DNA of 64,000 bases from Chloroflexota bacterium (GTDB taxonomy: Bacteria; Chloroflexota; UBA11872): NCBI GenBank assembly GCA_022826485.1, contig JAJDUU010000021.1, forward strand, positions 65,558 to 129,557. Direction: 5' to 3'. The translations under genes and the position numbers were made by a program. The notes beneath the pieces were generated by a model. The model had not been told where the DNA came from and made no database searches. It worked only from the letters and a program-made list of their open reading frames with translations. Within the stretch, counting starts at the first letter, position 1; each line of letters starts with the position of its first letter. This document shows positions 9,569 to 36,363 of this stretch, one piece after another.

Positions 9569-10573
9569 TCAGGCACTGCGACGACTCCAAACCGCCAGCG
9601 CGACGGCGCCGGCAGCGGTCACCAGACCCAGGGCGCCTAAGACTATGCCGACGATGCCAATGACGCGCGTGCCGGCCGCCTCGTCGAGCGCCTCGTCCGC
9701 CGAAGCCTGCGAGTTGCGCACCACTCCCTCGAGCTCTCGCACGCTGGGGAGCGCGACGGGGAACTGGGCCACGGCGCGCGACTGCACGGCGTCGAACGTA
9801 TTCGCGCCGGACTCGAAGGCCTCATCGAACGGCTGGCCTTCGATGCTGCCAACGAACCGGAACCGATAGCCGCCAGGCTGCGTCGGAATGAAGTCCGCCG
9901 TGTAGGCGCCGGGGTGGTCGAACAGCGGCGCGAGCGCCATGACCGTCGACTGCCCGGAGGATATGTGGGTGACTTCAACCTGGAGCGTGTCCTCCAGACC
10001 GGTCACCGGGCCGCCGAGGCCGGCGGCGGCATGGGCTTCATCCGTGTGCATCCCGCTCGCGATGAGTTGCGGCTCGCCGGTGCGGTTCAGAAACACGACG
10101 GTGGCGCCCGGCTGGGCGCGAAGCATGGGCGGCACGGCGCCGTCTGCGCGCAACTCGATCTCCACGCGACTTCCCGCCGGTGCGTCCCGTGAGACTTCGA
10201 TCGACCCGGCACTGACGGCGTTGAGGTGGCTGTGGTAGGGAATCGTCATGCCGTCGAGGTCGTGCGGAATCTCCACCTCGAACGCGTCGCCGTCCTCGAA
10301 TGGCGTGGACACGAAGACGCCTCCGTGGGCCATGACGTCCGGCATCTGGCCGCCCGCCATGTCGTCAGGCTCCTGGGCCCCTTTTCTGGTGACCTCGAAA
10401 AATACGGCATTCAGATAGCCCTCGTAGGCGGGTTCGTTGAGGAAGCCGACGACAACGTCGTAGCCGGCCGATTCTCGGCCTTCGTGGGCCAGCACGCCCG
10501 AGGCCGCCGTGGCGGATAGGACCATCGCCGTCACCAGCGCGCGCACCGCGGCACGCGCGGATGTCCATGGCAT
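9569..10573 (-). CDS. Secreted, C-terminally membrane-anchored protein of the copper operon (possible Cu-binding protein with N-terminal His after the signal peptide)
   Basis: ATG at 10573 gives MPWTSARAAVRALVTAMVLSATAASGVLA|HEG… (signal peptide, then His). A C-terminal hydrophobic anchor (…VIGIVGIVLGALGLVTAAGAVALAVW) follows. It is co-directional with and immediately upstream of CopCD. No confident family assignment. Confidence 0.5.
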   Translation of the reverse strand: MPWTSARAAVRALVTAMVLSATAASGVLAHEGRESAGYDVVVGFLNEPAYEGYLNAVFFEVTRKGAQEPDDMAGGQMPDVMAHGGVFVSTPFEDGDAFEVEIPHDLDGMTIPYHSHLNAVSAGSIEVSRDAPAGSRVEIELRADGAVPPMLRAQPGATVVFLNRTGEPQLIASGMHTDEAHAAAGLGGPVTGLEDTLQVEVTHISSGQSTVMALAPLFDHPGAYTADFIPTQPGGYRFRFVGSIEGQPFDEAFESGANTFDAVQSRAVAQFPVALPSVRELEGVVRNSQASADEALDEAAGTRVIGIVGIVLGALGLVTAAGAVALAVWSRRSA

Positions 10574-10649
10574 GTCAGTTCTCCTTAGAGGCTGTGCACG
10601 GCGGCGTGAAACGACGAGACGCCTGCCGTGGTCGTGGTCGACTCGTCGA

Positions 10650-10997
10650 CTAGGCTCGTGGCGGTGGATGCGCCAGCTTTGGCGCCCATTCGGCGACCCG
10701 CTGGATGGCGAGCGAGGTCCGCCGCGACGCGACCAGGAGCAGCGCCGCGGCGAGCAACGCCGGAATGACCCCCGCCAGCAGCCCGGACACGCCCTCGGGG
10801 AACTCGCCCGAGGACGCCTCCGAATCGGTCTCCGCTGGCGCGTCGCCGGTCGCAAGGTGCACATGGCGGTGCCCTTCGTGACCGGGCGGAACCTCCATGT
10901 CGATGGCCTGCGCGAGCAGCACCGTCAGCACGGGCGCCGCGAGGGCAAGCAGCGCCGCTCGCGCGAGGATGCGCCCACCGACGCCGGATAGCTTCAT
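10650..10997 (-). CDS. Small His-rich membrane/periplasmic protein (putative metal-binding)
   Basis: ATG at 10997 gives MKLSGVGGRILARAALLALAAPVLTVLLAQA… then PPGHEGHRHVHLATGD and a C-terminal TM segment. It is the first gene of the minus-strand copper cluster. Confidence 0.4.
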   Translation of the reverse strand: MKLSGVGGRILARAALLALAAPVLTVLLAQAIDMEVPPGHEGHRHVHLATGDAPAETDSEASSGEFPEGVSGLLAGVIPALLAAALLLVASRRTSLAIQRVAEWAPKLAHPPPRA

Positions 10998-16148: not shown

Positions 16149-16379
16149 ATGAGACTCCGCAAGCTGTTTCGAAGAGAACCGCCCCCCAGCGAGTGGCCAA
16201 TCCGCTACACTGTCAAAGTGATGCCGCGCGAGACACTGCGAACGATTGCCGAGCGGGAGTATGGCGATCAACGCCAGTGGCAGATCATCTTCGACCGCAA
16301 TAAGTGGCGATTTGACGGCGAGGATCCTCAGGCGGTTTATCCCGGAATGGATCTCGATATCCCGGAACCCGCGACATAG
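16149..16379 (+). CDS. LysM-domain small protein
   Basis: …YTVKVMPRETLRTIAEREYGDQRQWQIIFDRNKWRFDGEDPQAVYPGMDLDIPEP… fits the LysM pattern. Confidence 0.45.
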   Translation: MRLRKLFRREPPPSEWPIRYTVKVMPRETLRTIAEREYGDQRQWQIIFDRNKWRFDGEDPQAVYPGMDLDIPEPAT

Positions 16380-16394
16380 GCCAAGGCCGGGTAT

Positions 16395-16483
16395 TGGTGC
16401 CGAAGGTCGGGATCGAACCGACACGAGGAGTTACCTCACTGGTTTTTGAGACCAGCGCGTCTACCAATTCCGCCACTTCGGCG
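16395..16483 (-). tRNA. tRNA-Leu (anticodon CAA)
   Basis: Reverse complement: GCCGAAGTGGCGGAATTGGTAGACGCGCTGGTCTCAAAAACCAGTGAGGTAACTCCTCGTGTCGGTTCGATCCCGACCTTCGGCACCA. It shows an acceptor stem, anticodon loop CUCAAAA, a long variable arm, a T-arm GTCGG/TTCGATC/CCGAC, and an encoded CCA. Confidence 0.85.
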
Positions 16484-16485
16484 CG

Positions 16486-16562
16486 TGGCAGGAGTGGAGG
16501 GACTCGAACCCCCGACCTACGGTTTTGGAGACCGTTGCTCTAGCCAACTGAGCTACACTCCT
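16486..16562 (-). tRNA. tRNA-Trp (anticodon CCA)
   Basis: Reverse complement: AGGAGTGTAGCTCAGTTGGCTAGAGCAACGGTCTCCAAAACCGTAGGTCGGGGGTTCGAGTCCCTCCACTCCTGCCA, with anticodon loop CUCCAAA. It is 2 nt from the tRNA-Leu 5' end. Confidence 0.85.
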
Positions 16563-16787
16563 CCGCCGGTTTCACGGTAGCACAGGATCGGCGCGCCGCG
16601 GCCGCCGTTTTGAGCCTCGCGCGAGCCCAAGTCATACCGGCGCTACCCGCGCAGACCGGGGCGACACGGCGACGCGGACCGTAGCATTCCTGGGACGCGG
16701 GTGGTCGTTGATTCTGTCAGATCGAACACACATTGGCCACTCAGTTTGTACCAATGGATCAGTGTGACGATTCAAGTTGGCCGAGGC

Positions 16788-16816
16788 ATAGATTCCCGCC
16801 TTCGCGGGAATGACGA
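16788..16816. repeat. REP-like palindromic element, copy 4 (ATAGATTCCCGCCTTCGCGGGAATGACGAGGGG)
   Basis: Same core as the other copies. It lies in the intergenic region between tRNA-Trp and the 16979..17929 gene. Confidence 0.6.
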
Positions 16817-16978
16817 GGGGTAGAATCCAGGTGTTCTCCTGGCCTGGAGCATTCACTGCCATTGCACGGATCACAGATCATTCACTGGAAGCAAATCGTT
16901 CGACAGAGGTGCTCAGGATGGAACCAACATGGTTTTCACTTAGACTCGAACAATCGACGTCATCGATTTAGACCTGAC

Positions 16979-17929
16979 TTATTCGGCCTGCATCCAATGC
17001 CGATATTCGCTCCAAATGTCGTCTGGTCCCCTGTCCGGCTTGAAGACCAAGCGCCCCTGCCAACGGTACGCTTCGCCGGCCTGGCATTGCTTGATGACGA
17101 TGCCGAAGTCCCACGCCGGGTTGCGCGGCCCGCCCCCGGTCGGCTGGATGGCAAACCGCAGATGGTCATCCGTGCGCAGCATCAGCGCCAGCACCATGTT
17201 CCGCCAGCGGCCGAACATCACCGGCTCGACGTAGCGCAGGGGTTGGATGTTGTGCAGCAGGCGTCCCGCGGGATCCGGTTCGCCGGGCAGCAGCGCCGCT
17301 TCCCGCTCCGAGGCGAAGGCGCGTGCATCGTGCGGCGGCTCGGCCAGCGTCGCGGCCCTGTCGCTCTCCGCCCCTGCCCGAGGCCGGGCGCGAATGTAGG
17401 TGGTCTTGACCTCGGGCCGCCGGATATAGCAGGCCCAGAACAACCCCACCCAGTCGCCGGTGAACGAGCCTGGATGCGGGGACATCACGGTTTCCAGGTC
17501 GACGTAGTGGGGCGGTACGACTCTGAATGTGGTCTGCACGTCGACGCGTTGCGGTGGTTGGACGCGCGTCGTCAGGACTACGGTGGATTCGTCCACGCGC
17601 GTGAGGCTGCTGGGCGTGGGTGCGCCGCCGGAGCGCCCATCGACCCAGCGCGGTCGCATTGATGAGCCGGCGGCGTCGTAGACAAACTCGAAATTCAGGC
17701 CGCTTCCCCCGGCCACGCCGAAGATGTTCTCCGCCGGGCCGTGGCGGCTGTAGAGCTGTCGCATGCCGTTGTAGCCGGTGTACCTGTCGAAGCGAAAAGG
17801 GCCGTCTTCAAAGGTGCCGTCCTTGATCGCGGCCATGCGGGCGTCGTCCCGAGTCGGGGGGTCTGAAGCGTCGGCGTTGTCGACGATCTCGACGAACAGA
17901 TCGCCGGCGGTTATGAACTGGGTGCCCAC
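16979..17929 (-). CDS. Hypothetical protein (316 aa), divergent partner of the tandem paralog pair
   Basis: A long ORF on the opposite strand from no better-supported gene. I recognise no confident family. It shares a ~110-bp divergent region with the 18042 gene. Confidence 0.45.
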   Translation of the reverse strand: MGTQFITAGDLFVEIVDNADASDPPTRDDARMAAIKDGTFEDGPFRFDRYTGYNGMRQLYSRHGPAENIFGVAGGSGLNFEFVYDAAGSSMRPRWVDGRSGGAPTPSSLTRVDESTVVLTTRVQPPQRVDVQTTFRVVPPHYVDLETVMSPHPGSFTGDWVGLFWACYIRRPEVKTTYIRARPRAGAESDRAATLAEPPHDARAFASEREAALLPGEPDPAGRLLHNIQPLRYVEPVMFGRWRNMVLALMLRTDDHLRFAIQPTGGGPRNPAWDFGIVIKQCQAGEAYRWQGRLVFKPDRGPDDIWSEYRHWMQAE

Positions 17930-18041
17930 GCGCGCCCTCCAGTGCTGTCTCGTGGATGAGATAGCGTCTGATACGCTGCGCCGTCAACTGGTGGCCCGCG
18001 AAATCGACGCCGAGACGCGGGTCGGCGGAAGGGGTTGTGCC

Positions 18042-19847
18042 ATGGCTGGCGACGAGCGCGACCGCTTCGCGGACCGCTGGCTCTCGCGTTCCCCGATCTA
18101 TCTGACCGACCTGGACCGGTGCGAGCCTGCCGCGGCACTGGCCGACGTGCCGGCGTTGCGGCACTGGCGGAAGTTGGCCTTCTCCACCGACGACCTCGAG
18201 GGCACGATGCTGCTGGCGGGGCCACAGACCGCGGCGCCCACCATCACCTATCCGCTCGACGCGTCCGGCTGGCACGCCATCTCCGTTGGACTCGTGCGGT
18301 GCCATGCCGGAGGCCACCACACCCGGGCCAGCGAGCTGGAGCTTCGGCTGACGGATGACCGCGTGCCGACGGTGCTGGTGCTGCCGTCGCTGGCGGATCA
18401 CCATACCGACGAGCCGATGCCGGAGCACCGGGAAGTGGCCGAGCTGTTCTGGAAATACGCGGAGCTGGACGGACGACACCTGGAGCTCGGTCAGCCAGCC
18501 GCCCGCCTGAAGTCCGGCGATGAAGCCGCGTCGTTTGCCTGCGGCGCGGTGCACGTGGCGTATATCAAGCTCGTGCCGCTCACCGACGATGAGGCGGCCC
18601 TCGTCCAAGAAGACGGAAGCGGAGCCGACACGAAGCGACTGTTCGCGCACAACGACTCGCACGGTCCGCACTGGATCTGGCGGCTGACGTCGGCGGACGA
18701 GATTCGCCGCGAGATCGAGCCCTACCGCGATACCGATTTCACCCGCATGTACTGGGAAGCCGGCGGCGGCGACGAGGTCCACTACTTCTCCAAGATTGCG
18801 CACATCCCCACGTGCGAGGCAGTGCACGACTTCAACCGCCGCGGCGATCGGCTGCATGCCGAGAGCTGGCGCGAGTTCCGCGCCGCGGGAGTCGATCCAT
18901 TCGCCGTCGCCGTCGACCACACCCACGAGCTGGGCATGGAGTTCCACGCGGCCTGGCGAATCTCGGGGTTCCACTACCCGCCGCCCATCGACCACAACAA
19001 CTTCGGTGACACGTTCTACGACCGCCACCCGGAATGGCGCGGCGAGGATCGCGACGGCCGGCGCACGCCGATCATGGCCTACACCTACGCCGGCGTCCGC
19101 CAGTTCGCGGTCTCCCTGTTTCGCGAGATGGCGAAATATCCGATCGACGGCGTGTGTCCGCTATATAACCGGCGTCTGCCGCTGGTGGAGTACGAGCCGC
19201 CGTTGGTGGAAGGGTTCAAGCGCGAATTCGGTACCGACCCGCGGGAGTTGGACGAGCGCGATCCAACCTGGCTGGCCTACCGCTCGCGGATCCTCACCCA
19301 GTTCATGCGGGAGCTGCGCCAGGCGATGGACGAGGTGAGCCGCGAGCAGGGGCGGACGAAGCCAATCGCCGTGTCAGCGGTGGTGGAAGGCCGGGAGGCC
19401 GCCAACAGCTTCTTTGGCTGCGACCTCAAGACCTGGGCGCAGGAAGGCCTGGTGGACACGCTGATTCCCTACGTCTCGGACTGGGAGTCGCGCGGGAGCG
19501 TGGCGCCATGGACCGACGCGCGCGAGCTGGACTATTTCCTGGATGCGGTCGACGGGACGTCGTGCGTGCTGGCGCCGAACGTCATGCCGCGCTCGATGAG
19601 TCCGGAGGACTTTCGCCGCCGGGCCGCCACGATCTATGGGGCGGGGATCGAGCACCTGTTCTTCTGGGACTGCGCGGGTGGCGAGGGGCGGGCAAACTAC
19701 CGGCCGATGTGGAGCGCGGTACGTCGCCTGGGCCACGTGGACGAGGTCTTGGCGTGGCGGGACGCGGGAGAGCCGGAGTTGGGCTGGATCTCGTCGGATT
19801 TGCGAAGCGTGGGCGACTGGAGCACGGCCTATGACGACGCCGGGTAG
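18042..19847 (+). CDS. Large hypothetical protein, paralog A (possible TIM-barrel glycoside-hydrolase-like fold)
   Basis: ATG at 18042 (MAGDERDRFADRWLSRSPIYLTDLDRC…). It is colinear with paralog B along its whole length. Shared motifs: AYIKLVPL, FAHND-HG, YWEA, GxEFHA-[WY]R[IV][SA]GFH, YP[IV][DN]GV, NRRxPLxxYE, LVEGF, GLVDT[LV]IPY, CVLAPN-MPR. Confidence 0.6.
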   Translation: MAGDERDRFADRWLSRSPIYLTDLDRCEPAAALADVPALRHWRKLAFSTDDLEGTMLLAGPQTAAPTITYPLDASGWHAISVGLVRCHAGGHHTRASELELRLTDDRVPTVLVLPSLADHHTDEPMPEHREVAELFWKYAELDGRHLELGQPAARLKSGDEAASFACGAVHVAYIKLVPLTDDEAALVQEDGSGADTKRLFAHNDSHGPHWIWRLTSADEIRREIEPYRDTDFTRMYWEAGGGDEVHYFSKIAHIPTCEAVHDFNRRGDRLHAESWREFRAAGVDPFAVAVDHTHELGMEFHAAWRISGFHYPPPIDHNNFGDTFYDRHPEWRGEDRDGRRTPIMAYTYAGVRQFAVSLFREMAKYPIDGVCPLYNRRLPLVEYEPPLVEGFKREFGTDPRELDERDPTWLAYRSRILTQFMRELRQAMDEVSREQGRTKPIAVSAVVEGREAANSFFGCDLKTWAQEGLVDTLIPYVSDWESRGSVAPWTDARELDYFLDAVDGTSCVLAPNVMPRSMSPEDFRRRAATIYGAGIEHLFFWDCAGGEGRANYRPMWSAVRRLGHVDEVLAWRDAGEPELGWISSDLRSVGDWSTAYDDAG

Positions 19848-21615
19848 CGTGCCGCTCGACCGCCACACCGACCGCTGGCTTTCCGCTGCGCCGGTGTACC
19901 TGGCGGACCTGGACCGCTGCGCGCCGGCCGATGCACAGAGCTCCGAACCGGCGTTGCGGCGCTGGCGCGCGCTGCCGTTCACGGCCGAGGCCTGCGCCGG
20001 CACGATGCTGGTGGCCGGTCCCGAAACCGCGGCGCCCGACGTCACCTATCCCCTCGACGTGGAGGGTTGGCACGCAATCTCGATCGGCGTCTACGCCGAA
20101 ATGCACGGCGAGAGCCGCGCGATGCGCGCCCGACTCACGGGAGAGGCGTCCTTCACCTACCTGGCGACTCACCCCGACGAGGGCAACTTTCAGGCCGAGC
20201 ACCTGCTGGAGCGGTTCTGGAAAATCGCCGACTTGACGGATCGACAGATTGAGCTTGGACAGATCAGGCCCCGCGTCGGATCCGGTGACGAGGCCGGATC
20301 GTTCGTCTGCACACCGGCGAACATCGCCTATATCAAGCTGGTTCCGCTGTCACCGGCCGAGGTAGAGGCGCACCTGGCAGACGAGGCCCGCACGGACCGG
20401 CGGCGCATATTCGCGCACAACGACGCCCACGGCTACCTGTGGAACGGCGGGCCGCTCACGGTCGAAGAGATCCAGCGCGAGGTCGCCCCGTTCGCCGATT
20501 CGGACGTGGCGCGGATCTATTGGGAGGCCGCGGTCGGCGACCTGACGTTCTATCCCTCCAACATCGGCCACATGCCGACGGCCGACGGCGTGGAGGACTT
20601 CATACGCGTCGGCGATCTCACGCACGCGCGAGCCTGGCGGCACTTTCGCGACGAGGGAATCGACCCGCTGCGCATCGCCGCCGAGACCGCGCGGTCCGTC
20701 GGAATTGAGTTCCACGCCTCATACCGCGTTGCCGGTTTCCACTTTGCGCCGCCGATCTACGACGCGTGGAACGCCGGCGGGTTCTACCTGGACCATCCCG
20801 AGCTTCGCTGTGTGACACGCGACGGCACTCCGGCACCGCGCCTGTCGTATGCCTTCCCCGAGACGCGGGAGCTCGTGATTTCGCTCTTGCGAGAGATGGC
20901 GAGCTATCCGGTCAACGGCGTCGCGCTGCTGTTCAATCGCCGCCCGCCGCTCTTGGATTACGAGCAAACGTTGGTTGAGGGATTCCAGGCGCAATTCGGC
21001 ATGGACCCCCGCACGCTGGAGGAGCGCGACGAGCGCTGGCTGCGCTATCGGGCCGGCTTCCTGACCACATTCATGCGTGAGTTGCGCGCCGGACTTGACG
21101 CCACGGACCGCGAGCTCGGACGCACCGATCCCACGCAGATCTCGGCGGTCGTGCTGAGCAGCGAAGCCGAGAACCTCTACCGAGCCATCGACCTTCGCAC
21201 CTGGGTCGCTGAAGGCCTGGTGGACACGGTGATCCCCTATACCTCGGCGCCAAACCTCGACAGCGGCGCGGAGGCCTGGGGCGACCCGGCGTCGATCGAG
21301 TTTTTTACCGAGCTGGTCAGCGGGACCGACTGCGTGCTGGCGCCGAACCTGATGCCGCGCTACATGGCGCCCGCCGAACTGCGGCGACGCGCGCGCGAGC
21401 TCTACGACGCCGGCGTGACGCACCTCTTTGCCTGGGATGCCGTGGTCCTCGGCGGGCGCGTGCTGTTCAACGACTATTGGGACGCGCTGCGCCGGTTGGG
21501 CCATCGCGACGAGATCGAGGCCTGGATCGCAGCGGGCGAGCCATCGCTCGGCTCGACCACCATGCGCCTGTTGACGCTCGGCGACTGGGACATGTCCTAC
21601 GCCACGCCGGGCTAG
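19831..21615 (+). CDS. Large hypothetical protein, paralog B (tandem duplicate of 18042..19847)
   Basis: ATG at 19831 (MTTPGSVPLDRHTDRWLSAAPVYLADLDRC…). It overlaps the end of paralog A by 17 nt and has the same motif set as paralog A. Confidence 0.6.
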   Translation: MTTPGSVPLDRHTDRWLSAAPVYLADLDRCAPADAQSSEPALRRWRALPFTAEACAGTMLVAGPETAAPDVTYPLDVEGWHAISIGVYAEMHGESRAMRARLTGEASFTYLATHPDEGNFQAEHLLERFWKIADLTDRQIELGQIRPRVGSGDEAGSFVCTPANIAYIKLVPLSPAEVEAHLADEARTDRRRIFAHNDAHGYLWNGGPLTVEEIQREVAPFADSDVARIYWEAAVGDLTFYPSNIGHMPTADGVEDFIRVGDLTHARAWRHFRDEGIDPLRIAAETARSVGIEFHASYRVAGFHFAPPIYDAWNAGGFYLDHPELRCVTRDGTPAPRLSYAFPETRELVISLLREMASYPVNGVALLFNRRPPLLDYEQTLVEGFQAQFGMDPRTLEERDERWLRYRAGFLTTFMRELRAGLDATDRELGRTDPTQISAVVLSSEAENLYRAIDLRTWVAEGLVDTVIPYTSAPNLDSGAEAWGDPASIEFFTELVSGTDCVLAPNLMPRYMAPAELRRRARELYDAGVTHLFAWDAVVLGGRVLFNDYWDALRRLGHRDEIEAWIAAGEPSLGSTTMRLLTLGDWDMSYATPG

Positions 21616-21643
21616 CGCCGCCCTGCGGCCAGGCGCCTAGAGC

Positions 21644-22843
21644 GTGACGAGCGAGCCGCTGGTGGACGGACCGCGGGCCTGCGCCCTCGAGGAGTTCGAT
21701 GAGGTCCTCGATCTGCTCAACCACGTGTTCCGCGCCGGGTCCGACCAGAAAACGCAGACCGACTATCCGCTGATCTTCGATCCGGCGCGGCGCGAAAACA
21801 TGCGCGTGGTAAGCGTTGACGGCGCCGTTGTGGCGCACGTACCGGTGGCGCCGCGGGGCGTGGTCATCGACGGCGACGCGTTCACACTCGCCATCATCGG
21901 CGGAACGGTGACCCACCCGGATCATCGGCATCGCGGCTACGCGACCGCCTGCCTGCGGGACGGCGTCCGCATCATGGTCGAGCGCGGCTGGCCGGTCTCG
22001 GCGCTGTGGACGATCGAGCCGACGTATCCGTTCTATCGAAACTCAGGCTGGGAGGCGGTCGGGTCGCAGGGATGGATGTACACGCTGGCCGCGGATGACG
22101 CGGCGCGACTGCGGCCCAGCCACCACCGCATCGCCGTCTACGAACCCGGCAACGACGAGCATCTGAGCGCCATCCGCCGAATTCACGATCGCGAGCCGCT
22201 GCGCATCGCTCGCTCGACCGATGAGTACGCGGTCCTGTTCAGCCTGCCCAAGATGCACACTTTCCTAGCCTTCGAGGGTGATGAGGTCGCCGCCTACCTG
22301 ACGGTTGGACAGGGGACGAACAAGCCAGGTCTGGTCGAGGGCGGCGGCGACCGCCTAGCGCTAGAGGCGTTGGTGCGACGCGCGCGCGCCGAGTGGCCGG
22401 CAGACCAGGAACTCCAGGTCGTGCTGCCGCTCACGCCGTGCGCCCTGGGCGACGTGGTCGAGGCAATCAAGCCGGGGCAACGGCGGCCGGTGGAGAAGGC
22501 CAGCGGCGTCGGGTTTCAGATGATGCGGGTGAACGATCTCGGCTTGCTGCTGCGCCAACTAAAGAACCACCTGCGGCGACGGTCGCCGGGCATCCTCGGC
22601 GACGTGTGCATCGTGTGCGAGGACAGCGACGAGTCCGTGTCGCTGCACGTGCGCGACGGTGAGGTCGAAGTCAGCGCCGAGCGCTTGCCGGAGCCGGTCA
22701 CGTTGAGCCGCCGCCAACTGACGCAGCTGGTCTTTGGCGCGCATGCGTCCGTGCCGCCGCTGGAGCTAACGGGAGCGGCGGCCGCGCTGCTTGAAGCCCT
22801 GTTCCCGCTCTACGCGCCAATCTGGGAGATCGATCACTCATAG
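21644..22843 (+). CDS. GNAT-family N-acetyltransferase with C-terminal SCP2-like domain (Eis-like architecture)
   Basis: GNAT core (…LAIIGGTVTHPDHRHRGYATACLRDGVRIMVERG…). Its length (399 aa) and C-terminal region are consistent with the Eis-type layout. GTG start at 21644. Confidence 0.55.
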   Translation: MTSEPLVDGPRACALEEFDEVLDLLNHVFRAGSDQKTQTDYPLIFDPARRENMRVVSVDGAVVAHVPVAPRGVVIDGDAFTLAIIGGTVTHPDHRHRGYATACLRDGVRIMVERGWPVSALWTIEPTYPFYRNSGWEAVGSQGWMYTLAADDAARLRPSHHRIAVYEPGNDEHLSAIRRIHDREPLRIARSTDEYAVLFSLPKMHTFLAFEGDEVAAYLTVGQGTNKPGLVEGGGDRLALEALVRRARAEWPADQELQVVLPLTPCALGDVVEAIKPGQRRPVEKASGVGFQMMRVNDLGLLLRQLKNHLRRRSPGILGDVCIVCEDSDESVSLHVRDGEVEVSAERLPEPVTLSRRQLTQLVFGAHASVPPLELTGAAAALLEALFPLYAPIWEIDHS

Positions 22844-22859
22844 CGCGTCGCGGCAGCGA

Positions 22860-24338
22860 ATGGAGCATTCCGTGAGCCGTCCCAACATCCTGCTCATCGT
22901 CACCGACCAGCAGCGGGGCGACTGCCTCGGCTTGGCGGGTCACCCGGTGCTGCGGACGCCAAACATGGATTACATCGGCGGCGCCGGCACGCACTTCACC
23001 CGCGGGTACAGCGAGGTGCCGTCCTGCATTCCGGCGCGCCACGTGCTGATGTCGGGGCAAGCCGCGGACGTGAGCGGGATGGTGGGGTTCTACTACCGAT
23101 CCGACGAGTCGCCGTGGCGGCCGCCGGCAACGCTGCCCGGCGAGCTGCGCCGCGCCGGCTACGAGACGCGCCTCATCGGCAAGCTGCACCTGCAGCCGCG
23201 ACGCCGCCGCTGGGGGTTCGACGCCATGGAGCTGGCCGACGGCGTGGGCGGGGCCGACAACGACTACGTGGACTGGCTGCGCGAGCGCGTGCCCGACGAT
23301 CAACTCCAAGCCGCGCACGGCGTCGGCTCCAACAGCTGGGTCGGCCGGCCGTCGCACCTGCCGGAGCACCTGAGCTACTCGGCGTGGGTGGTCACACGGG
23401 CGCTGGAGTATCTGGAGAAGCGCGACCCGTCGACGCCGTTCTTTCTCAACCTCTCGTTCTTTCCGCCGCATCCTCCGCTCGCGCCGTCGCGCGTCTTCTA
23501 TGAGCGCTACGCCACGCTCGATCTCCCGGAGCCGGTGATTGGAGATTGGGTGGAGCCGTTGCCGCCGGGCGCATCGCGCGGGCTCGATCCCATCGGCGGC
23601 TCGCAGCGCCTGCATCTCGATCCGCTGACCATGCACTACTGCCGCGCGGCGTACTACGGGCTGATCAACGAGATCGACGCGCAGCTTGGCCGGCTATTCA
23701 ACGCCATTCGCGGCTCGTTGCTGACCAACACGTTCGTGATGTTCGTGTCCGACCACGGCGAGATGCTCGGCGATCACCACCTGTTCGCGAAGACCGAGCC
23801 GTTCGAGGCGTCCGCCCGGATCCCCTTCATGGCGATGGCGCCCCAGCCGGGACGGGGCAAGGTTAATGCCGAGTTTCCCTCGGGAATCACCTGCGACGCG
23901 CCGGTCGGCCTGCAAGACGTGATGCCCACGTTGCTGGACGCGGCCGGCGTGCCGATCCCGTCGGAGGTGACCGGTCGAAGCCTGCTGCCCTTCATGCGCG
24001 GCGCGCAGCCGGAATGGCGCGATGCCTTGCACGGCGAGCACGCCACCTGGCGCACGCCGGACAGCGGCACCCACTGGCTGGTGACGGCCACCCATAAGTA
24101 CATCTGGCACAGCCAGACCGGGCAAGAGCTCCTGTTCGATCTGGTGGCCGATCCGAATGAGCTGCACGACCTGTCCGGCGAGCAGGACCTCGAGCCGTGG
24201 CGTCGGGGAATGGTCGCGGCGCTGGCCGAGCGCCCGGAAGGTTTCACCGATGGGCGCCGGCTCATACCGGGCCAGCCGCATCGCGCGTTCGTACCGGGCA
24301 AGGGGCCGGTCGTCGAGTGGCCGGACGTGGGGCGCTGA
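22860..24338 (+). CDS. Sulfatase (formylglycine-dependent arylsulfatase family)
   Basis: NILLIVTDQQRGDCLG… and the sulfatase signature C-x-P-x-R (…VPSCIPARHVLMSG…). ATG at 22860. Confidence 0.8.
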   Translation: MEHSVSRPNILLIVTDQQRGDCLGLAGHPVLRTPNMDYIGGAGTHFTRGYSEVPSCIPARHVLMSGQAADVSGMVGFYYRSDESPWRPPATLPGELRRAGYETRLIGKLHLQPRRRRWGFDAMELADGVGGADNDYVDWLRERVPDDQLQAAHGVGSNSWVGRPSHLPEHLSYSAWVVTRALEYLEKRDPSTPFFLNLSFFPPHPPLAPSRVFYERYATLDLPEPVIGDWVEPLPPGASRGLDPIGGSQRLHLDPLTMHYCRAAYYGLINEIDAQLGRLFNAIRGSLLTNTFVMFVSDHGEMLGDHHLFAKTEPFEASARIPFMAMAPQPGRGKVNAEFPSGITCDAPVGLQDVMPTLLDAAGVPIPSEVTGRSLLPFMRGAQPEWRDALHGEHATWRTPDSGTHWLVTATHKYIWHSQTGQELLFDLVADPNELHDLSGEQDLEPWRRGMVAALAERPEGFTDGRRLIPGQPHRAFVPGKGPVVEWPDVGR

Positions 24339-24548
24339 GCAGGCGTCGTCCCGCGCCGGCCTCGCAGCCGCCCGTCCACGCCCGCAGGGAGTGACAATCG
24401 AGGCGCACAGCACGGCATGCGTCACAATGATCGACATGCGCGCCGGTCGTTCGCACAGTGCGCCCGATCACCGCCGCGTCCCCGCGAGCATTGCTGCGAG
24501 TGTCAGCGTTGTGCACCACGCCGGCACACCTGAAGGGCCTACTACTCC

Positions 24549-25991
24549 TTGACGCGACTTGCCAACCGCACCGTGGTCTTGCGGGTGGCGGATTGGACGG
24601 GACGGCTCTTGCTCCTGGGGGCCGTGGGACTGTGGTGGGGCGGTCACGTGGGGCCGCAGCTTTTCAGCCTGGCGTTCCCGGCGCTGCTGTCGCCGGACCA
24701 TTTGCTGCGGCCACTGGACCCCGAGCTGGATGAGGGTCTAGCCAACACCCTTTCGGCCGCGACGCTGCTGATCGTGGGGCTGTTGGCCTTTGCCAGCGCC
24801 ATCGCCAGGTGGCGACGGACGAGCGGCATGACGGCTCCCGCGGGCTGGGGCGTGCTGGGAGTGGTCGCCTCGGCGATCGCCGTCAGCGAAATGAGCGACA
24901 CGCACAACGACGCCGTGGTGGCCGCCTTACCGCTGGTGTTCGGCGCGGAGGCGGCCGATGCGGACTGGGCTCGCATCGCGCTGCTCGGCCCACTGCTGGC
25001 GGTGTTCGCCCTGGCGATGTGGATATTCGGCCGCCGTGGACTGGCTACGCCGGCGGTGCGGGTGCCCTTTGTCCTGGGCATTGGAGCCTGGCTGCTGGCG
25101 GTCGCCTTCGACTCCACCCAGCCGATCCTGTTGAACGGCCAGGACGACGTGTTGGGAAGCGTCGTTGAAGAGATGCTCGAATTGAGCGGGGCGCTGTTGC
25201 TTGGCCTGAGCGCCGCCACGGACCTGCGCGGGAATGCCGCGTCACGGCCGTCACCGCACCTGTTCCGCGACCGCTGGCTGAAACCGCTTCTCGGGTCGAT
25301 GGCTCTCGTAATCGTGTTGGGCGCTTTGGCATTCGTCGTGGCATTCCGGGTGCTACTTATCGACGCGCGCGCCACGATCGATCACGACACCCTCGATCTG
25401 CGGCTGTCCGCGCAGGAATCGGTCATGCAGGAGCTGCGGATGCCGGCTGATCCCGTCGGGCGGATTGACCTACAGCTGGCGCATCATGACCCGAACGGCC
25501 GCGCCGGAACCGCGGCCATCCGCATCACCGAACCGGCGAATCCGGAACGGACGCTGGCCGTTGGGTCGGTGGAAGTCCCCGTCGGTGATCGACCGCGATG
25601 GCGGAGCATCGATCTCCTGCCCCCGCTGGCCGAGGCTCACGACCAGCAGCTACAGATCTGGGTGATTGCCGACATCACGCCCGGGACCCAGCTTCAGGTC
25701 GGGGTGACACAGGCAGACCGTTATCCGGACGGGGGGTTTTGGATCAACGGGGAGCCCGGCGAGGCGCACCACGACCTGCAATTCGTGGCCTATGGGGCGG
25801 CCGAGCCGACGTTGAGCAAGCTCCAGGCCGTCTGGCAGACCATATCGTCTGACTGGCGCTGGCCGGTTCTGCTGCTCCGATTGGCCATAGGTTTGACGCT
25901 TATCACCGTAACCCCGGTCGCACTGATCGCCGCAGCAATCGGCGGTCTGGGGCGCGAGGGCCGCTCGCGACCAGGCGGCGACAGCGAGTAG
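24549..25991 (+). CDS. Hypothetical polytopic membrane protein
   Basis: 480-aa ORF with several hydrophobic helices in the N-terminal two-thirds and a C-terminal soluble region. TTG start at 24549 is uncertain. Confidence 0.4.
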   Translation: MTRLANRTVVLRVADWTGRLLLLGAVGLWWGGHVGPQLFSLAFPALLSPDHLLRPLDPELDEGLANTLSAATLLIVGLLAFASAIARWRRTSGMTAPAGWGVLGVVASAIAVSEMSDTHNDAVVAALPLVFGAEAADADWARIALLGPLLAVFALAMWIFGRRGLATPAVRVPFVLGIGAWLLAVAFDSTQPILLNGQDDVLGSVVEEMLELSGALLLGLSAATDLRGNAASRPSPHLFRDRWLKPLLGSMALVIVLGALAFVVAFRVLLIDARATIDHDTLDLRLSAQESVMQELRMPADPVGRIDLQLAHHDPNGRAGTAAIRITEPANPERTLAVGSVEVPVGDRPRWRSIDLLPPLAEAHDQQLQIWVIADITPGTQLQVGVTQADRYPDGGFWINGEPGEAHHDLQFVAYGAAEPTLSKLQAVWQTISSDWRWPVLLLRLAIGLTLITVTPVALIAAAIGGLGREGRSRPGGDSE

Positions 25992-26029
25992 CCCCGACTG
26001 GGGCGCGGGCGCCCGCGGCGGAGCGCTCG

Positions 26030-27490
26030 CTAGATCAGACCGGCCCGCCGCAGGGCGCGCGGCACACGGCTAGCTTGGGCGCGAGCCATGGCGTCGAGCG
26101 TGCCCGCTAGCTCCCCTGCCTGGAAGGCGGCGGCCGGATCAGCCATCGGCCGCGTGCGCAGCCAATCCGCCGCGACGACGGCGTCGTTGTAGTCGCCGAG
26201 GATGTCTTGGAGCGCGGCGAGACGACGCGCTAGGCGCTTCACGGGCTTGCCGCCGTGCCGTTGCACCGCCTCGGCGGCGTAGCGCGCGCGCTTGGCCACG
26301 ATGCGCATGCGGTGCAGCTCGTCGGCGCTGGTGGCGGAGTCGACCTTTGACGCCACGCGGCTCAGGCGTCCCTCGGCCCGGCGGGCCAGAGACCGCAAGT
26401 CGCGCGGCGCCATGTCGTGTGCGTCGTCGAGCACCTGCGGCGACGACGATGCCTCGATGACGCGATCGAGCAACTGGTCGGTGCGCTCGCTCTGAAGCAT
26501 GGTCAGGAGCTCTTCCCGCGCTTCCTGCCGCTCGACCAGCAACCGCGCCAGGACCGACTCGGGCGTGGTGCGCGATGGGTCCAGGGTTCGAGCCGCCGTT
26601 TCGAGCGTCTCGAGCATCACGTCGGCATCGCGAATTGGCTGCATCAGCCCAGCCAGCCACCGGAGCTCGTCGCCCAGCGCACGTCGCCAGGCGTCGTCCA
26701 AGAGGGGTCCAAACGTGCGCATGTTGGAGCGCAGCCGACGCGTGGCGACTCGGGCTTGATGCACGGCCTCGGGATCCTCGTCCAAGACAACCCCCGGCAG
26801 CGCCAGCACCAGTCGCCGCGCGGCCTCGGCGAACGCGGTCCGAATGACGTCGGCCGCCGTGGCGTGGGCGCCGAGCCGGGATACCACCACCTCGGGAGAC
26901 GCCGCGGCGTCGGCATCGATGGCGCGCCGCAGCTTCGGCACGTGAATCGGCACGGTCGCGCCGGCCGCCTGCAAGCGTGTGACGACGTCCCGCACGGTTT
27001 CCTCGGACACATCCGGCTGCAACTCGACTTCCACCTCGCGAAACTGCTTGGCCATGGCGCCGCCGGCATAGGCCGTCACGGCGTCCTCGGAAATCTCGGC
27101 GAGGCCTTGTCCCTCGGCGTCGGTCACATCCGTGGACCGGCGCGTCGTTTCCAAGCGAACCAGCGGGACAACCGGACGCGCGCGAGTGAATGGCCGCACG
27201 ATGGTGAGCGCGTGGCGCGGAGGAGCGTCCGCCGGGCCGTCCACGGGAACCTCGTCTCGCGCGAGCGCGGTGCCGTCGTCGAGCACGGGGAGCTTGACCA
27301 GCCATCCCTCGCCGACGCGATATCGCAGCGTGCAGCCCCAGCGCAGGAGTCGCAGGTCGGCGGTGTCGTAGTACCTGGTGACCAGCTGTCGAGGCTCGTG
27401 GCGGCGCGTCACGTAGGCGGCCAGCGCCCGGTCAAGGTTCAACTCAACGAGCGGATCGATGCCCAGCTTGTGCTCGCGCTCACGGGTCAC
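26030..27490 (-). CDS. CYTH-domain (triphosphate tunnel metalloenzyme) + CHAD-domain protein
   Basis: GTG at 27490 gives VTREREHKLGIDP… (CYTH E-x-E-x-K start). A long helical CHAD region follows (…VHQARVATRRLRS… …MRIVAKRARYAAEA…). Confidence 0.65.
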   Translation of the reverse strand: MTREREHKLGIDPLVELNLDRALAAYVTRRHEPRQLVTRYYDTADLRLLRWGCTLRYRVGEGWLVKLPVLDDGTALARDEVPVDGPADAPPRHALTIVRPFTRARPVVPLVRLETTRRSTDVTDAEGQGLAEISEDAVTAYAGGAMAKQFREVEVELQPDVSEETVRDVVTRLQAAGATVPIHVPKLRRAIDADAAASPEVVVSRLGAHATAADVIRTAFAEAARRLVLALPGVVLDEDPEAVHQARVATRRLRSNMRTFGPLLDDAWRRALGDELRWLAGLMQPIRDADVMLETLETAARTLDPSRTTPESVLARLLVERQEAREELLTMLQSERTDQLLDRVIEASSSPQVLDDAHDMAPRDLRSLARRAEGRLSRVASKVDSATSADELHRMRIVAKRARYAAEAVQRHGGKPVKRLARRLAALQDILGDYNDAVVAADWLRTRPMADPAAAFQAGELAGTLDAMARAQASRVPRALRRAGLI

Positions 27491-27738
27491 CGGCAAGGCC
27501 CAACTCCTGTCCGCCCAACGCCCCGCAGCCCCACGATCCGGCAGCGCGGGCCGACTATCATATAAGCCCCTCGCCGCCCCCTGAGGACCACGTTGTGAGA
27601 CTCGCCGGACTCGCTGGCCTCTTGCGGGCATGGGCGGCGCGGAGTCGCCGAGGGACGGGGGCAACAGCCGGCACGGAGCGAGACGGCGGCGCGTCGGACG
27701 GTGGCCCAGCCGCGCCATCGAGTCGCCGCGCGCCAGCC

Positions 27739-28497
27739 ATGTCGGACCAAGGCGGCATGCCGCCGGGCCCATTTCCGGGGCGGCTGTTCGTTGTGGAAGG
27801 CATTGACGGCTCCGGCAAGAGCACCCAGCTCGATCTGCTGCACAAGTGGCTGACCAGCCGCGGCGTGCTGGTGGTGTCGAGCGAGTGGAACTCGTCGCCA
27901 ATCGTTCGCGGCACCACCCGACGGGGAAAGCGGCGCCGCTTGTTTTCCCCAATGACGTTCAGCCTGATCCACTGCGCGGACTTGGCGAATCGGGTCTACG
28001 AGCAAATCCTCCCGGCGCTGCACGCCGGGGCCACGGTGCTCGCCGACCGCTATATCTACACGGCGTTCGCCCGTGACGCCGCCCGCGGCGTCAATCCCGT
28101 TTGGCTGCGCCACCTCTACGCCTTCGCGCCCAAGCCAACCATGGCGTTCTACTTCGACGTGCCGCTGCCGGAGGCGATTCGGCGGATCGAAGACGGACGG
28201 GCGCGGCTGAAGTACTACGAGGCCGGCATGGACCTGGGGCTGAGCAGCGATCTCAACCGCTCGTTCCAGGCGTTTCAGGGCATGATCCAAACCGAATACG
28301 AGCGGATGCTCGATGAGTTCGGACTGATCTCCATCGATGCGACCGCCCCGCCAACCGAGCAGCAGCACAGAGTCCGGGAGCTTGTGGAGCCCCACATCGA
28401 CGGCGCGCTCAAGATTCAGGACGGCGGCCTGGCCGACGCCCTAACGGCATCGGGGCTCACGGGGCGCTACCTGGACACGCTCGGGGCCCGACGATGA
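27739..28497 (+). CDS. Thymidylate-kinase-like P-loop kinase, paralog A (canonical Walker A)
   Basis: ATG at 27739. The Walker A is …LFVVEGIDGSGKSTQ… and the DRY-type motif is …LADRYIYT…. Confidence 0.65.
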   Translation: MSDQGGMPPGPFPGRLFVVEGIDGSGKSTQLDLLHKWLTSRGVLVVSSEWNSSPIVRGTTRRGKRRRLFSPMTFSLIHCADLANRVYEQILPALHAGATVLADRYIYTAFARDAARGVNPVWLRHLYAFAPKPTMAFYFDVPLPEAIRRIEDGRARLKYYEAGMDLGLSSDLNRSFQAFQGMIQTEYERMLDEFGLISIDATAPPTEQQHRVRELVEPHIDGALKIQDGGLADALTASGLTGRYLDTLGARR

Positions 28498-29201
28498 CGA
28501 ACCGGCAAGCGCGGGTGCTGCGCTTCTTCGGGGAGCCGCCCACCGGATGGCACGACCGGGAGGTCCTGGGCCGCATCATCGTGTTCGAAGGCCCCGACGG
28601 CGCCGGGCGATCGACCCATATCCGGCTCATCAAGGAGTGGCTGGAGGACATGGGGCTTCCCGCCGTGGATACCGGACTCACCCGCTCCAATCTTGCCGGG
28701 CGCGGCATCGACCGGGCCAAGACGGGGCACCGGTTGGACGCCGTGACGCTCAACCTGTTCTACGCCACCGACTTCTGCGACCGCCTGGAGCGGGTGATCC
28801 TGCCGTCAGCCCGCGCCGGAATGGTGGTGCTCGCCGACCGCTATTTCTATTCGCTCATCGCGCGGGCCTGTGTGCGGGACATGCCGCGTGAGTGGATGGA
28901 CGGGCTCTATTCGTTCGCCCCGATCCCCGACAAGGTGATTTATCTCGACGTTGATGTGGATCAGCTGCTACCGCGGGCGCTGCATGCCGGCAACATCGAC
29001 TATTGGGAATCGGGGCAGGACTTCCTGAAGGGAACCGATCCGCATTCGACCTATATCGAGTATCAGACGGACATGATCCGAGAGCTCCGCGAGTTGGCCG
29101 GCATCCATGACTTCGACGTCGTGGACGCGCGCGGACCCATCACGCAAACCTTCGAATCCATCCGCGGGCGCATTCAGGAAGTGATCGCCGACATCGCCTG
29201 A
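28494..29201 (+). CDS. Thymidylate-kinase-like protein, paralog B (degenerate Walker A: K->R)
   Basis: …IIVFEGPDGAGRSTH… (GxGRST instead of GxGKST) and …LADRYFYS…. There is a 4-nt ATGA overlap with paralog A. Confidence 0.6.
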   Translation: MTNRQARVLRFFGEPPTGWHDREVLGRIIVFEGPDGAGRSTHIRLIKEWLEDMGLPAVDTGLTRSNLAGRGIDRAKTGHRLDAVTLNLFYATDFCDRLERVILPSARAGMVVLADRYFYSLIARACVRDMPREWMDGLYSFAPIPDKVIYLDVDVDQLLPRALHAGNIDYWESGQDFLKGTDPHSTYIEYQTDMIRELRELAGIHDFDVVDARGPITQTFESIRGRIQEVIADIA

Positions 29202-30781: not shown

Positions 30782-31672
30782 ATGACTCAGTGCCATCGAC
30801 CTCCGCAGTTTTCCCTTGCGACGAGCATGTGGGGCGAAGTGCCAACGACAAGCCTCGCCGAGACTCTGTCGGATGTGACCGCAGCGAACTTTGAGGCGAT
30901 CGAGCTCTGGCCGCCGCTTTGTCCCCTGTTTTCCGACAAGATGCGCACCAACGCTCGAGAGGCGTTCGCGCGGACTAACGTTCGGCCGGACACGATGCAC
31001 GCGCCGCTCACGTCAACCGTGAAGCTCTCGGCGGTCGAGGAGCTCGACCGGCGCCTTGCGGTGTACGAGGTTGCCGCATGGCTGTCACCCTTTGCCGACC
31101 TCGGCGGCGACGTGGTGGTGATTCACCTGACGGGCGCCGACTTCAGCGACGAAGCGTCGCATGGCATCAACGTCGAAACGGCCGTCGATGCGGCCCGCCG
31201 GTCACTCGACGAGCTCTATACGATCGCCGATCGCCTGGGTCTGCGGATCGCCTGCGAAAACCTGATGGAGCGCGGCACACCGCGGCCGCTCTGTCGGATG
31301 GAGCAGTTGCGAGCGTTCGTCGACCCGTATCCCGCAACCGTCGGAATCTGCCTGGACACCGGACACGCGGTGGTCAACGGCCTCAATCCGGCGTCGGAGG
31401 CGCGCGCCGCGGGCGACCGGCTGATTGCGACGCACCTGCAGGACACCGATGGCATCGATGATCGGCATTGGGTGCCGGGCGCCGGGCGGATCAACTGGGA
31501 CGAGCTCGTGTCAGCCCTTCACGAGATTGACTACACCGGCAAGTGGACGTTCGAGCTGAGCGCGCGCGACAGCGATCCCGCATCCGTGGCAAGCGCCGCG
31601 ATGCAGGTGGCGTTGGTCTGGAGTGGTCAGGGAAGCGTGGATTCGGCGGATTTCAGCCGCCGAGCTGACTAG
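30782..31672 (+). CDS. Sugar phosphate isomerase/epimerase (xylose-isomerase-like TIM barrel)
   Basis: …FEAIELW…, …IACENLM… and …CLDTGHA… motifs. Confidence 0.6.
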   Translation: MTQCHRPPQFSLATSMWGEVPTTSLAETLSDVTAANFEAIELWPPLCPLFSDKMRTNAREAFARTNVRPDTMHAPLTSTVKLSAVEELDRRLAVYEVAAWLSPFADLGGDVVVIHLTGADFSDEASHGINVETAVDAARRSLDELYTIADRLGLRIACENLMERGTPRPLCRMEQLRAFVDPYPATVGICLDTGHAVVNGLNPASEARAAGDRLIATHLQDTDGIDDRHWVPGAGRINWDELVSALHEIDYTGKWTFELSARDSDPASVASAAMQVALVWSGQGSVDSADFSRRAD

Positions 31673-33778: not shown

Positions 33779-33824
33779 CGCCCAGCGCGATGCCGCTGCC
33801 CTGAGCAGCGGCACCCGCGGAGTT

Positions 33825-33860
33825 CGAAGGGCCGGCGGTCGAATGACCGCCGGCCCTTCG
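33825..33860 (+). terminator. Intrinsic-terminator-like hairpin after SBP1 (14-bp perfect stem, 8-nt loop; no U-tract)
   Basis: cgaagggccggcgg-tcgaatga-ccgccggcccttcg. There is a second 8-bp stem hairpin at ~33792-33815. Confidence 0.5.
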
Positions 33861-34228
33861 GCGTTGCGCCGTCTCCGCGGTGAGCCGCGGCGGTTCAGCC
33901 GTTAGGCACTGTTGACGAGTTTCCGCTTTCTAAACTACTTTGCCCCAAAGTGCGGGCTGACGTTGGGCGGATCGATGCCGAATTCAGGCATTCCAACGGA
34001 CAACTGGGACCGCACGCGGCCTGCGCCGCGAGGCCGACGAGCCATTAGGCCGGGCCAGCCGGACAAGCCCTACTTCAACGTTCTTCCGGCCGCCCACTCC
34101 TCCACAGCACACCGTTCCGCGGTCTATCGCCGTCTGACTGAAGGGAGGAGGTCCAGACCCAAACGCGGATAGCCGCTGGAGCCGTGGTCGGACACTGAAT
34201 CTGTCGCACTGTGCAAACACGAGAGGGA

Positions 34229-36292: not shown

Positions 36293-36332
36293 GCCCTGGC
36301 GAGCGCCCCGGCTAGCGGGTCGCTCACCAACG

Positions 36333-36363
36333 CAAGCGGCGGGGGTGAATCACCCCCGCCGCT
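36333..36363. terminator. Bidirectional terminator-like hairpin between convergent SBP2 and sialidase-like genes (12-bp stem)
   Basis: aagcggcggggg-tgaatca-cccccgccgctt, read directly. Confidence 0.45.

Follow-up and report, generated by a model that had tools for sequence, protein, structure and literature searches.

Paralogous two-domain proteins related to GH156 glycosidases in a Chloroflexota genome of sponge type

We studied two adjacent genes, here called paralogs A and B, in a 64,000-nucleotide stretch of a Chloroflexota genome (assembly GCA_022826485.1, contig JAJDUU010000021.1, positions 65,558 to 129,557 of the forward strand), referred to throughout as the window. Our favored reading, held with modest confidence, is that A and B are anciently diverged members of a large two-domain family whose closest relatives are in glycoside hydrolase (GH) family GH156, and that they are cytoplasmic exo-glycosidases removing an anionic, carboxylate-bearing sugar from imported oligosaccharides of the sponge matrix. 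GH156 is a recently defined family with very few characterized enzymes and an unusual Asp/His inverting mechanism.

Fold and nearest relatives of the pair

The gene set was read from the listing of open reading frames (ORFs) and their translation, and all features were confirmed at the coordinates given here. The two genes under study are:

18042..19847 (+): paralog A, 601 amino acids (aa); beta domain aa 1-195 (nt 18042-18626), barrel aa ~196-575
19831..21615 (+): paralog B, 594 aa; two-domain layout as in paralog A, 17-nt overlap with A

An earlier reading of this DNA, made from its letters alone (the sequence-only reading), had described the two genes as full-length duplicates. They are indeed full-length paralogs, with 48% identity end to end (BLASTP, 555 bits, E = 0.0), but the duplication is not a recent one, as the two fall in separate deep clades (see below). 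The N-terminus of both proteins is conserved and part of a folded domain, and its conservation among 98 homologs backed the assigned starts of both genes. An AlphaFold2 model of A made with these 98 homologs (predicted local distance difference test score, pLDDT, 93; predicted template modeling score, pTM, 0.93) had a beta domain at the N-terminus (aa 1-195) and then a (beta/alpha)8 barrel. The N-terminal part that the sequence-only reading left unassigned is therefore of ~195 aa rather than ~230, and that reading was right to expect a TIM-barrel, glycoside-hydrolase-like C-terminal part, which was seen in the modeled barrel, in its structural matches to glycosidases and in a GHL10 signal.

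The nearest characterized relative of A and B is the GH156 inverting exosialidase, ahead of GHL10 and Cwp19. A profile of the A/B family searched against the PDB sequences matched the GH156 enzyme EnvSia156 at E 8.5e-15 and the GHL10 protein Cwp19 of C. difficile at E 1.8e-6. Foldseek searches with the model of A returned GH156 (E 2e-18), Cwp19 (E 2.7e-13) and the GH domain of PgaB (E 3.3e-9), placing the family in one structural lineage with GH156 and GHL10, and an hhalign comparison with 18 GH156 relatives gave a probability of 99.5% (E 9.2e-23) over 307 columns. The family profile was needed for the detection of GH156, as a phmmer search of the PDB with A alone gave nothing meaningful. No NCBIfam model matched A, B, or the 316-aa and 479-aa proteins encoded nearby. 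The glycosidase nature of A and B is supported.

The likeness to GHL10 that the sequence-only reading had pointed out was real, but GH156 is nearer. The GHL10 model PF02638 matched both proteins at aa ~275-475, over barrel strands 3-6, the matches being partial (about positions 63-261 of the 311-position model). The score of A (37.8 bits, E 1.5e-9) was over the gathering score of 27.9, and that of B (25.6 bits, E 8e-6) was just under it. With Cwp19 (PDB 5OQ2) the paralogs share a beta4 “DG[VI]” and a beta6 “GL[VI]D” motif, and the segment YP[IV]DGV...NRR, picked out in the sequence-only reading, aligns with “YDIDGV” of Cwp19. However, the Asp195-Asp196-Tyr197 that follows beta4 in Cwp19 (residues as described in PMC5765458) corresponds to L374-Y375-N376 in A, so that the Asp pair is not kept, and Cwp19 is an exported, cell-envelope protein whereas A and B have neither a signal peptide nor wall-binding repeats. 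Sequence similarity to the C-terminal GH domain of PgaB/BpsB (PDB 6AU1, 4P7O) was not detectable; PgaB is periplasmic, acts on poly-N-acetylglucosamine (PNAG) and has an active site unlike that of A and B. Literature searches on GHL10/DUF187/PF02638 and COG1649/UPF0748/YddW turned up nothing about the A/B subfamily or about sponges.

Active-site positions and a proposed function

EnvSia156 (PDB 6RZD, 6S00, 6S04) has sequence homology and a (beta/alpha)8 catalytic barrel in common with A and B. In its active site Asp14 serves as general base, His134 serves as general acid, and a carboxylate triad is made up of Arg129, Arg202 and Asn346 (PMC6811678). The hhalign alignment placed A-H-N-D205 of A opposite N-E-D14 of EnvSia156, and the beta1 Asp (D14 = D205), the beta3 Arg (R129 = R306) and the beta4 Arg (R202 = R377) are common to EnvSia156 and the paralogs, as are the G-x-D...W and LVD motifs. 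A His five residues past the beta3 Arg is found in EnvSia156, A and B. The key residues of A are D205 (nt 18654-18656), R306 (18957-18959), H311 (18972-18974), R377 (19170-19172), E385 and W542-D543 (D543 = 19668-19670), and pairwise alignment showed that B retains the D/R/H/R/WD positions. Residues at these positions were counted in 98 sequences of the A/B clade and in 109 sequences of the broad family (25-45% identity to A):

Asp14 (base), D205 of A: Asp in 97/98 of the clade and 103/109 of the broad family
Arg129, R306 of A: Arg in 98/98 and 109/109
Arg202, R377 of A: Arg in 98/98 and 109/109
His134 (acid), H311 of A and also His in B: His in 64/98 and 9/109
Asn346, D543 of A: Asp in 98/98 and 99/109

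Further polar residues conserved in the broad family were E385 (104/109), D461 (103/109), D232 (102/109) and W542 (103/109). From these alignments, the family appears to have the base and arginine clamp of GH156 but neither the acid and Asn of that family nor the Asp pair of GHL10.

The mechanism that we propose uses an active-site geometry derived from strand positions only. The strictly conserved R306 and R377, at the ends of beta3 and beta4, would clamp the carboxylate of the sugar, and D205 on beta1 would act as the general base that activates water for an inverting single displacement. In members that have this His, among them A and B, H311 may protonate the leaving group; the invariant D543 or E385 may serve instead. 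In this manner A and B would trim a sugar of the sialic, ulosonic or uronic acid type off oligosaccharides that the cell has imported from the matrix of its sponge host. We arrived at an acidic-sugar substrate class from the arginine clamp, from neighbors of the family genes that are of sugar-acid type and from what has been published on the metabolism of sponge Chloroflexi (PMC6306507), and we infer that the substrates come from the sponge matrix or from dissolved organic matter. The two proteins may be kept adjacent as sub-functionalized enzymes, each for its own linkage or sugar; a heterodimer is also conceivable.

The N-terminal sequences of A and B contain no signal peptide, lipobox, hydrophobic segment or Tat segment.

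Several observations weigh against the function proposed here. Identity between EnvSia156 and the paralogs is only 18-21%, and the domain layout differs: the beta sandwich of EnvSia156 is C-terminal, and A and B instead carry the extra ~195-aa beta domain at the N-terminus. At the position of the carboxylate-binding Asn346 the alignment puts Asp (D543), which would be expected to disfavor a carboxylate unless it is protonated or otherwise employed. Only 64/98 clade sequences and 9/109 of the broad family keep a His where GH156 has its acid, and N15 and S16, which bind the glycerol chain in EnvSia156, correspond to Ala/Ser and His in the A/B family. Finally, the gene context of the family is heterogeneous and does not point to a single pathway. 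The Asn-to-Asp change, together with a His and glycerol binders that are not conserved, leads us to argue against filing A and B as sialidases.

Distribution of the family and linkage of its genes

An exhaustive hidden Markov model (HMM) search of 1.84 billion cluster representatives found 4596 relatives (E <= 1e-3), of which 608 passed the stricter E <= 1e-30; the majority of the relatives are 550-600 aa long and have both domains. We regard the A/B family as a distinct, large sister group of GH156/GHL10 with another domain layout and a modified active site. The 608 representatives found at the stricter threshold indicate that this sister group is much larger than GH156; it appears to retain the base and arginine clamp and to alter the other catalytic positions.

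When genomes, one per species, were scanned with the family alignment, 414 genomic matches were confirmed, and the best 80 of these 414 loci were all in Chloroflexota/Dehalococcoidia or Candidatus Poribacteria metagenome-assembled genomes (MAGs). The closest loci, in which A is 87-89% identical, are from Chloroflexota and have the whole neighborhood in common with the window, and the window was therefore assigned to a sponge-type Chloroflexota. Several bin names among the best loci match those of sponge-microbiome studies, in agreement with the sponge species listed in a 2026 sponge study (PMC13200403). A host-associated, sponge-type Chloroflexota accords with the host-type glycans of the sequence-only reading; in the literature, bacteria of this kind are credited with breaking down glycans of the host as well as sulfated polysaccharides (PMC6306507).

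The family is expanded in these genomes. (Numbers with the prefix L denote loci, and with P, proteins.) The Chloroflexota chromosome OZ244806.1 (3.1 Mb) has at least 9 family copies (loci L011, L023, L035, L058 and L078), and OY282458.1 (2.7 Mb) has at least 8, five of them in tandem. Arrays of up to 5 tandem copies are found in Dehalococcoidia MAGs (L081 10001-19115; L063/L080/L082), and tandem pairs or triplets in about half of 15 non-redundant locus groups. The expansion is common to Poribacteria and Chloroflexota, but in Poribacteria there is mostly one family copy per locus. In a neighbor-joining tree the L011 tandem was split between the two paralogs, its first gene joining A (69% identity) and its second joining B (59% identity); A and B lie in separate deep clades of the family. 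Since each paralog pairs with one gene of the L011 tandem, the A-B pair is old and maintained and not the product of a recent duplication.

Remoter members of the family differ from the pair in having, in many cases, Sec or Tat signals (e.g., “SRRRFLQTT”). CBM9-like modules were fused in 3 of the 10 remoter members tested (P0315, P0336 and P0363, ~930-950 aa), and P0354/P0471 of Verrucomicrobiales, of 1041 aa, have an N-terminal GDSL/SGNH esterase fusion. These secretion signals and fusions make the family look carbohydrate-active, with the sponge-symbiont branch as its cytoplasmic version, and they provide handles for guessing substrates. The A/B family is among the most amplified enzyme-like families of sponge-symbiont Chloroflexota and Poribacteria. 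Its substrates, once identified, would tell which host or dissolved-organic-matter glycans feed these abundant uncultured symbionts, and the family could supply new exo-glycosidases for acidic sugars. The labels “family 10 glycosylhydrolase” and “GH156 sialidase” in sponge metagenomes may mask a distinct family.

We put forward, as a tentative and somewhat doubtful extension, that the family is a new GH family, sister to GH156, with an Asp(beta1)/Arg(beta3)/Arg(beta4)/Asp(beta8) center lacking the GH156 His and Asn. On this view its cytoplasmic branch would have expanded as a set of tools against acidic glycans particular to sponges, and would probably have passed horizontally between the two unrelated phyla of sponge symbionts, Chloroflexota and Poribacteria; the tandem pairs might act as heteromers or sequentially.

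Linkage was assessed by tblastn of the window proteins against 82 loci; beyond the near-identical genomes described below, the comparison covered 14 other non-redundant locus groups. A Pfam census of the neighbors up to four genes away in either direction, taken over these 14 groups, gave, as raw counts, Gfo/Idh/MocA 5, PhyH 4, methyltransferases 4, short-chain dehydrogenase/reductase (SDR) 3, BNR_2 3, dihydrodipicolinate synthase (DHDPS) family 3 and enolase-superfamily dehydratase 2. Such neighbors agree in a general way with the breakdown of sugars and sugar acids. Within a single subclade (groups 0, 4 and 12) a divergent DHDPS-family gene (~300 aa) lies 0-23 bp upstream of the family gene, at the following positions, and matches PF00701 with 31 bits only:

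L066 9100-10005: DHDPS-family gene
L040 9010-9954: DHDPS-family gene
L023 9082-9969: DHDPS-family gene

The 0-23 bp spacing suggests translational coupling of the family gene with an aldolase- or dehydratase-type enzyme of 2-keto-3-deoxy sugar acids. The nearest NCBIfam model was KdgD-like (46 bits, far below threshold). NanA was considered for this gene and rejected, as nanA models scored ~20-22 bits against cut-offs of 281-382.

These data bear on an alternative that we regard as unlikely, namely that both paralogs are true GH156 exo-sialidases and free N-acetylneuraminic acid (Neu5Ac), N-glycolylneuraminic acid (Neu5Gc) or ketodeoxynononic acid (KDN), working alongside the BNR (GH33-like) and GH20 proteins of the window. 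GH156 is the best profile and structure match, the equivalents of D14, R129 and R202 are conserved and the His is present in both A and B. In addition, in 3 of the 14 other groups a BNR_2 gene is no more than 4 genes away from a family member, and DHDPS-family genes are likewise near in 3. A relative from Verrucomicrobiales carries a fused GDSL esterase, and sialate O-acetylesterases belong to this fold class. Furthermore, expressed “GH156 sialidases” were reported in Dehalococcoidia symbionts in a 2026 sponge study (PMC13200403), and these may be the A/B family. Against this stand the replacement of N346 by an invariant Asp, the loss of the N15/S16 glycerol binders, a His that is poorly kept family-wide and an identity of ~20%. 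The adjoining DHDPS-like gene is not NanA, and at least 9 paralogs per genome would suit many specificities and not one.

The sequence-only reading had placed the pair at the core of a conserved locus for sulfated and acetylated glycans. The genes around the pair are:

16979..17929 (-): 316-aa gene, divergent from paralog A; mutarotase-like fold model
17930..18041: intergenic region of 112 bp between the 316-aa gene and paralog A, read from the sequence
21644..22843 (+): Eis-like GNAT acetyltransferase, 399 aa; Acetyltransf_9
22860..24338 (+): Cys-type (formylglycine) sulfatase, 492 aa; Pfam Sulfatase and SGSH_C
24552..25991 (+): multi-pass membrane protein, 479 aa; last same-strand gene of the run, several hydrophobic segments

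These five genes (316-aa, A, B, GNAT, sulfatase) were found together only in ~10 near-identical genomes (A at least 87% identical), where linkage is uninformative because the housekeeping flanks are syntenic too. In an ortholog of 71% identity, one contig has the same chromosomal position and the 316-aa gene; the other carries A-B-Old Yellow Enzyme (OYE)-GNAT-lipocalin-SDR-thiamine pyrophosphate (TPP) enzyme and has no sulfatase. Neither the GNAT nor the 316-aa gene was found in any of the 14 other locus groups (0/14), and a distant sulfatase (27-29% identity) was found in two. The idea of a conserved locus consequently failed on the point that the sequence-only reading had itself named as refuting, linkage in related genomes: the sulfatase is absent already at 71% identity and the GNAT at greater distance.

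A more specific form of this idea would have A and B do the central catalysis in a single operon that also includes the GNAT and sulfatase genes and handles sulfated or N-sulfated, acetylated host glycans, through desulfation, re-N-acetylation and cleavage, comparable to lysosomal heparan sulfate breakdown. We consider it improbable. A, B, GNAT and sulfatase are co-directional, and no overlap or gap between them exceeds 28 nt; the sulfatase has an SGSH_C domain; the GNAT lies downstream of A-B in the 71%-identity ortholog; and sponge Chloroflexi are reported to be enriched in arylsulfatases for host sulfated polysaccharides (PMC6306507). However, the sulfatase is missing from the 71% ortholog contig and from 12/14 other groups, the GNAT and 316-aa gene are missing from all 14, and the conserved Arg pair matches the carboxylate clamp of the nearest solved relative. 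The SGSH_C domain is no proof of sulfamidase activity either; it is a general C-terminal sulfatase module. In our favored reading the GNAT and sulfatase are lineage-specific additions to the operon and not obligatory partners of A and B.

It is distinctly less probable that the A/B barrel is not a hydrolase at all and serves in sugar binding or regulation, or in other sugar-acid chemistry as a lyase, phosphorylase or epimerase. The acid-catalyst position varies, and the neighbors of the family genes are mostly oxidoreductases, dehydratases and aldolases and not other glycosidases. Moreover, the GH156/GHL10 clan is not uniformly hydrolytic, since Cwp19 did not hydrolyze any of 11 carbohydrates (PMC5765458) and is a lytic transglycosylase according to the title of PMC6016235. 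On the other side, the GH156-like Asp and two Arg are strictly kept, as are the acidic D543 and E385 at strand ends, and CBM9 fusions and secreted relatives are typical of glycan-degrading enzymes. Least probable by far is that A and B are GHL10-type wall enzymes like Cwp19 acting on the peptidoglycan glycan strands of their own cell: the PF02638 match of A over the gathering score, the NCBI label “family 10 glycosylhydrolase” of relatives and a penicillin-binding protein (PBP; Transgly/Transpeptidase) gene upstream in the Poribacteria locus L002 speak for it, but the paralogs cannot reach the wall because they have no signal peptide or lipobox, Asp195/Asp196 of Cwp19 are L374/Y375 in A, GH156 scores higher on all measures, and at least 9 copies per small genome would be atypical of wall remodeling.

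Neighboring genes and the rest of the window

The ORF at 16979..17929 was confirmed as a real gene, with 49 homologs of its 316-aa product that include Poribacteria at ~53% identity, and no Pfam or NCBIfam match. An AlphaFold2 model (pLDDT 89) had a galactose-mutarotase-like beta-supersandwich fold, with the aldose 1-epimerase-like structures 3nre and 3k25 as the best Foldseek PDB matches (E 5e-8 to 1.5e-7, template modeling (TM) score ~0.45-0.5); the YidC P1 domain and the N-terminal domains of several glycosidases were also matched. The model supports a carbohydrate-related protein at fold level only. The Poribacteria homolog lies a long way from all family members: in L083/L084 (6347-10058) it comes directly after a TPP-dependent enzyme and ahead of a zinc-dependent alcohol dehydrogenase (Zn-ADH), with UxuA and an aldo-keto reductase nearby. 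A TPP enzyme is also encoded at 1030-2877 of the window and downstream in the 71%-ortholog contig (P0006), and this enzyme may be recurrently associated with the 316-aa gene.

The divergent arrangement of the 316-aa gene and paralog A was as described in the sequence-only reading, with a spacing of 112 bp for the 110 bp given there, and the region had no match to the sigma-70 consensus. A sigma-70 promoter and terminator scan of 16300-26300 gave results no better than shuffles, and an Rfam search found tRNAs only. A Shine-Dalgarno-like run, GGAAGGGG, is ~8 nt ahead of the paralog A ATG at 18042. Upstream of the 316-aa gene are tRNA-Leu(CAA) and tRNA-Trp(CCA), back to back at 16395-16562 (-), followed by a ~400-bp non-coding spacer (16563-16978) where the G+C content is lower (0.63 at 16-18 kb). 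The arrangement is also present in relatives down to 71% identity and could be an old island boundary.

The GNAT and sulfatase assignments of the sequence-only reading were upheld, apart from the SCP2 part of the GNAT, which was only weakly detected. The GNAT matched Acetyltransf_9 (E 2.8e-19) and Acetyltransf_1 (E 1.3e-7); its SCP2_2 tail was weak (E 0.064, below cut-off). It matched the Eis-type GNATs of PDB 3n7z and 2hv2, with which it has Acetyltransf_9 and a length of ~400 aa in common, but scored only 29.6 bits against the cut-off of 259 of the NCBIfam model PRK01346. The start of the sulfatase at 22860 was set from the gene call in L001, a 98%-identical contig. Its product matched Pfam Sulfatase PF00884 (E 4e-39) and SGSH_C (E 2e-14), and its motif C-I-P-A-R (“SCIPAR” in the translation) fits the C/S-x-P-x-R of type I sulfatases. 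Against the NCBIfam arylsulfatase model PRK13759 it scored 453 bits, with a cut-off of 481, and it had no signal peptide. L006 has an insert of ~2.4 kb between the GNAT and sulfatase. The 479-aa membrane protein had no Pfam, NCBIfam or PDB match, and it is variable in close relatives, being absent from L007 and represented by three tandem paralogs (50-70% identity) in L010 (16543-21600).

The window has a G+C content of ~67%. An actinobacterial origin, considered on account of this value, was rejected, since the nearest genomes are MAGs of Chloroflexota. The rest of the window is mainly housekeeping (inositol monophosphatase (IMPase), aminotransferase, PheA, an orotidine monophosphate (OMP) decarboxylase-like protein, phosphofructokinase (PFK), RtcB, MoeA, MoaC, AccA/D, ClpB and GyrA). 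The BNR, GH20 and solute-binding protein genes that the sequence-only reading had joined to the locus (BNR_2, GH20 and two SBP_bac_5 genes at 31.8-39.9 kb) are present, but they are parted from the A-B pair by unrelated genes for CHAD/CYTH, two thymidylate-kinase-like proteins and PFK. When compared with the loci by BLAST, the BNR and GH20 proteins of the window had no match and the SBP_bac_5 proteins had distant matches only. At 31805-39881 there are two consecutive large SBP_bac_5 proteins (~660-700 aa) with no permease or ATPase gene adjoining, and after them the BNR_2 sialidase-like gene (-) and the GH20 hexosaminidase gene (+). Just ahead of the SBP_bac_5 genes, at 30782-31672, is an AP_endonuc_2 (sugar isomerase-like TIM barrel) gene. 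At 26030-29201 the gene for a CYTH+CHAD protein (-) is followed by overlapping tandem thymidylate-kinase-like genes (27595-28497 and 28494-29201), an arrangement kept in close relatives.

Two further ORFs, 9569-10924 (-; 451 aa) and 40484-41404 (-; 306 aa), had coding-like third-position G+C and no Pfam or NCBIfam match. The segment at 46000-50300 has a G+C of 0.60-0.63 and carries an MMPL transporter, a gene with an MpaB/Lcp-like oxygenase domain and a small Fic/DOC ORF (49183-49581, -), and it may be acquired DNA.

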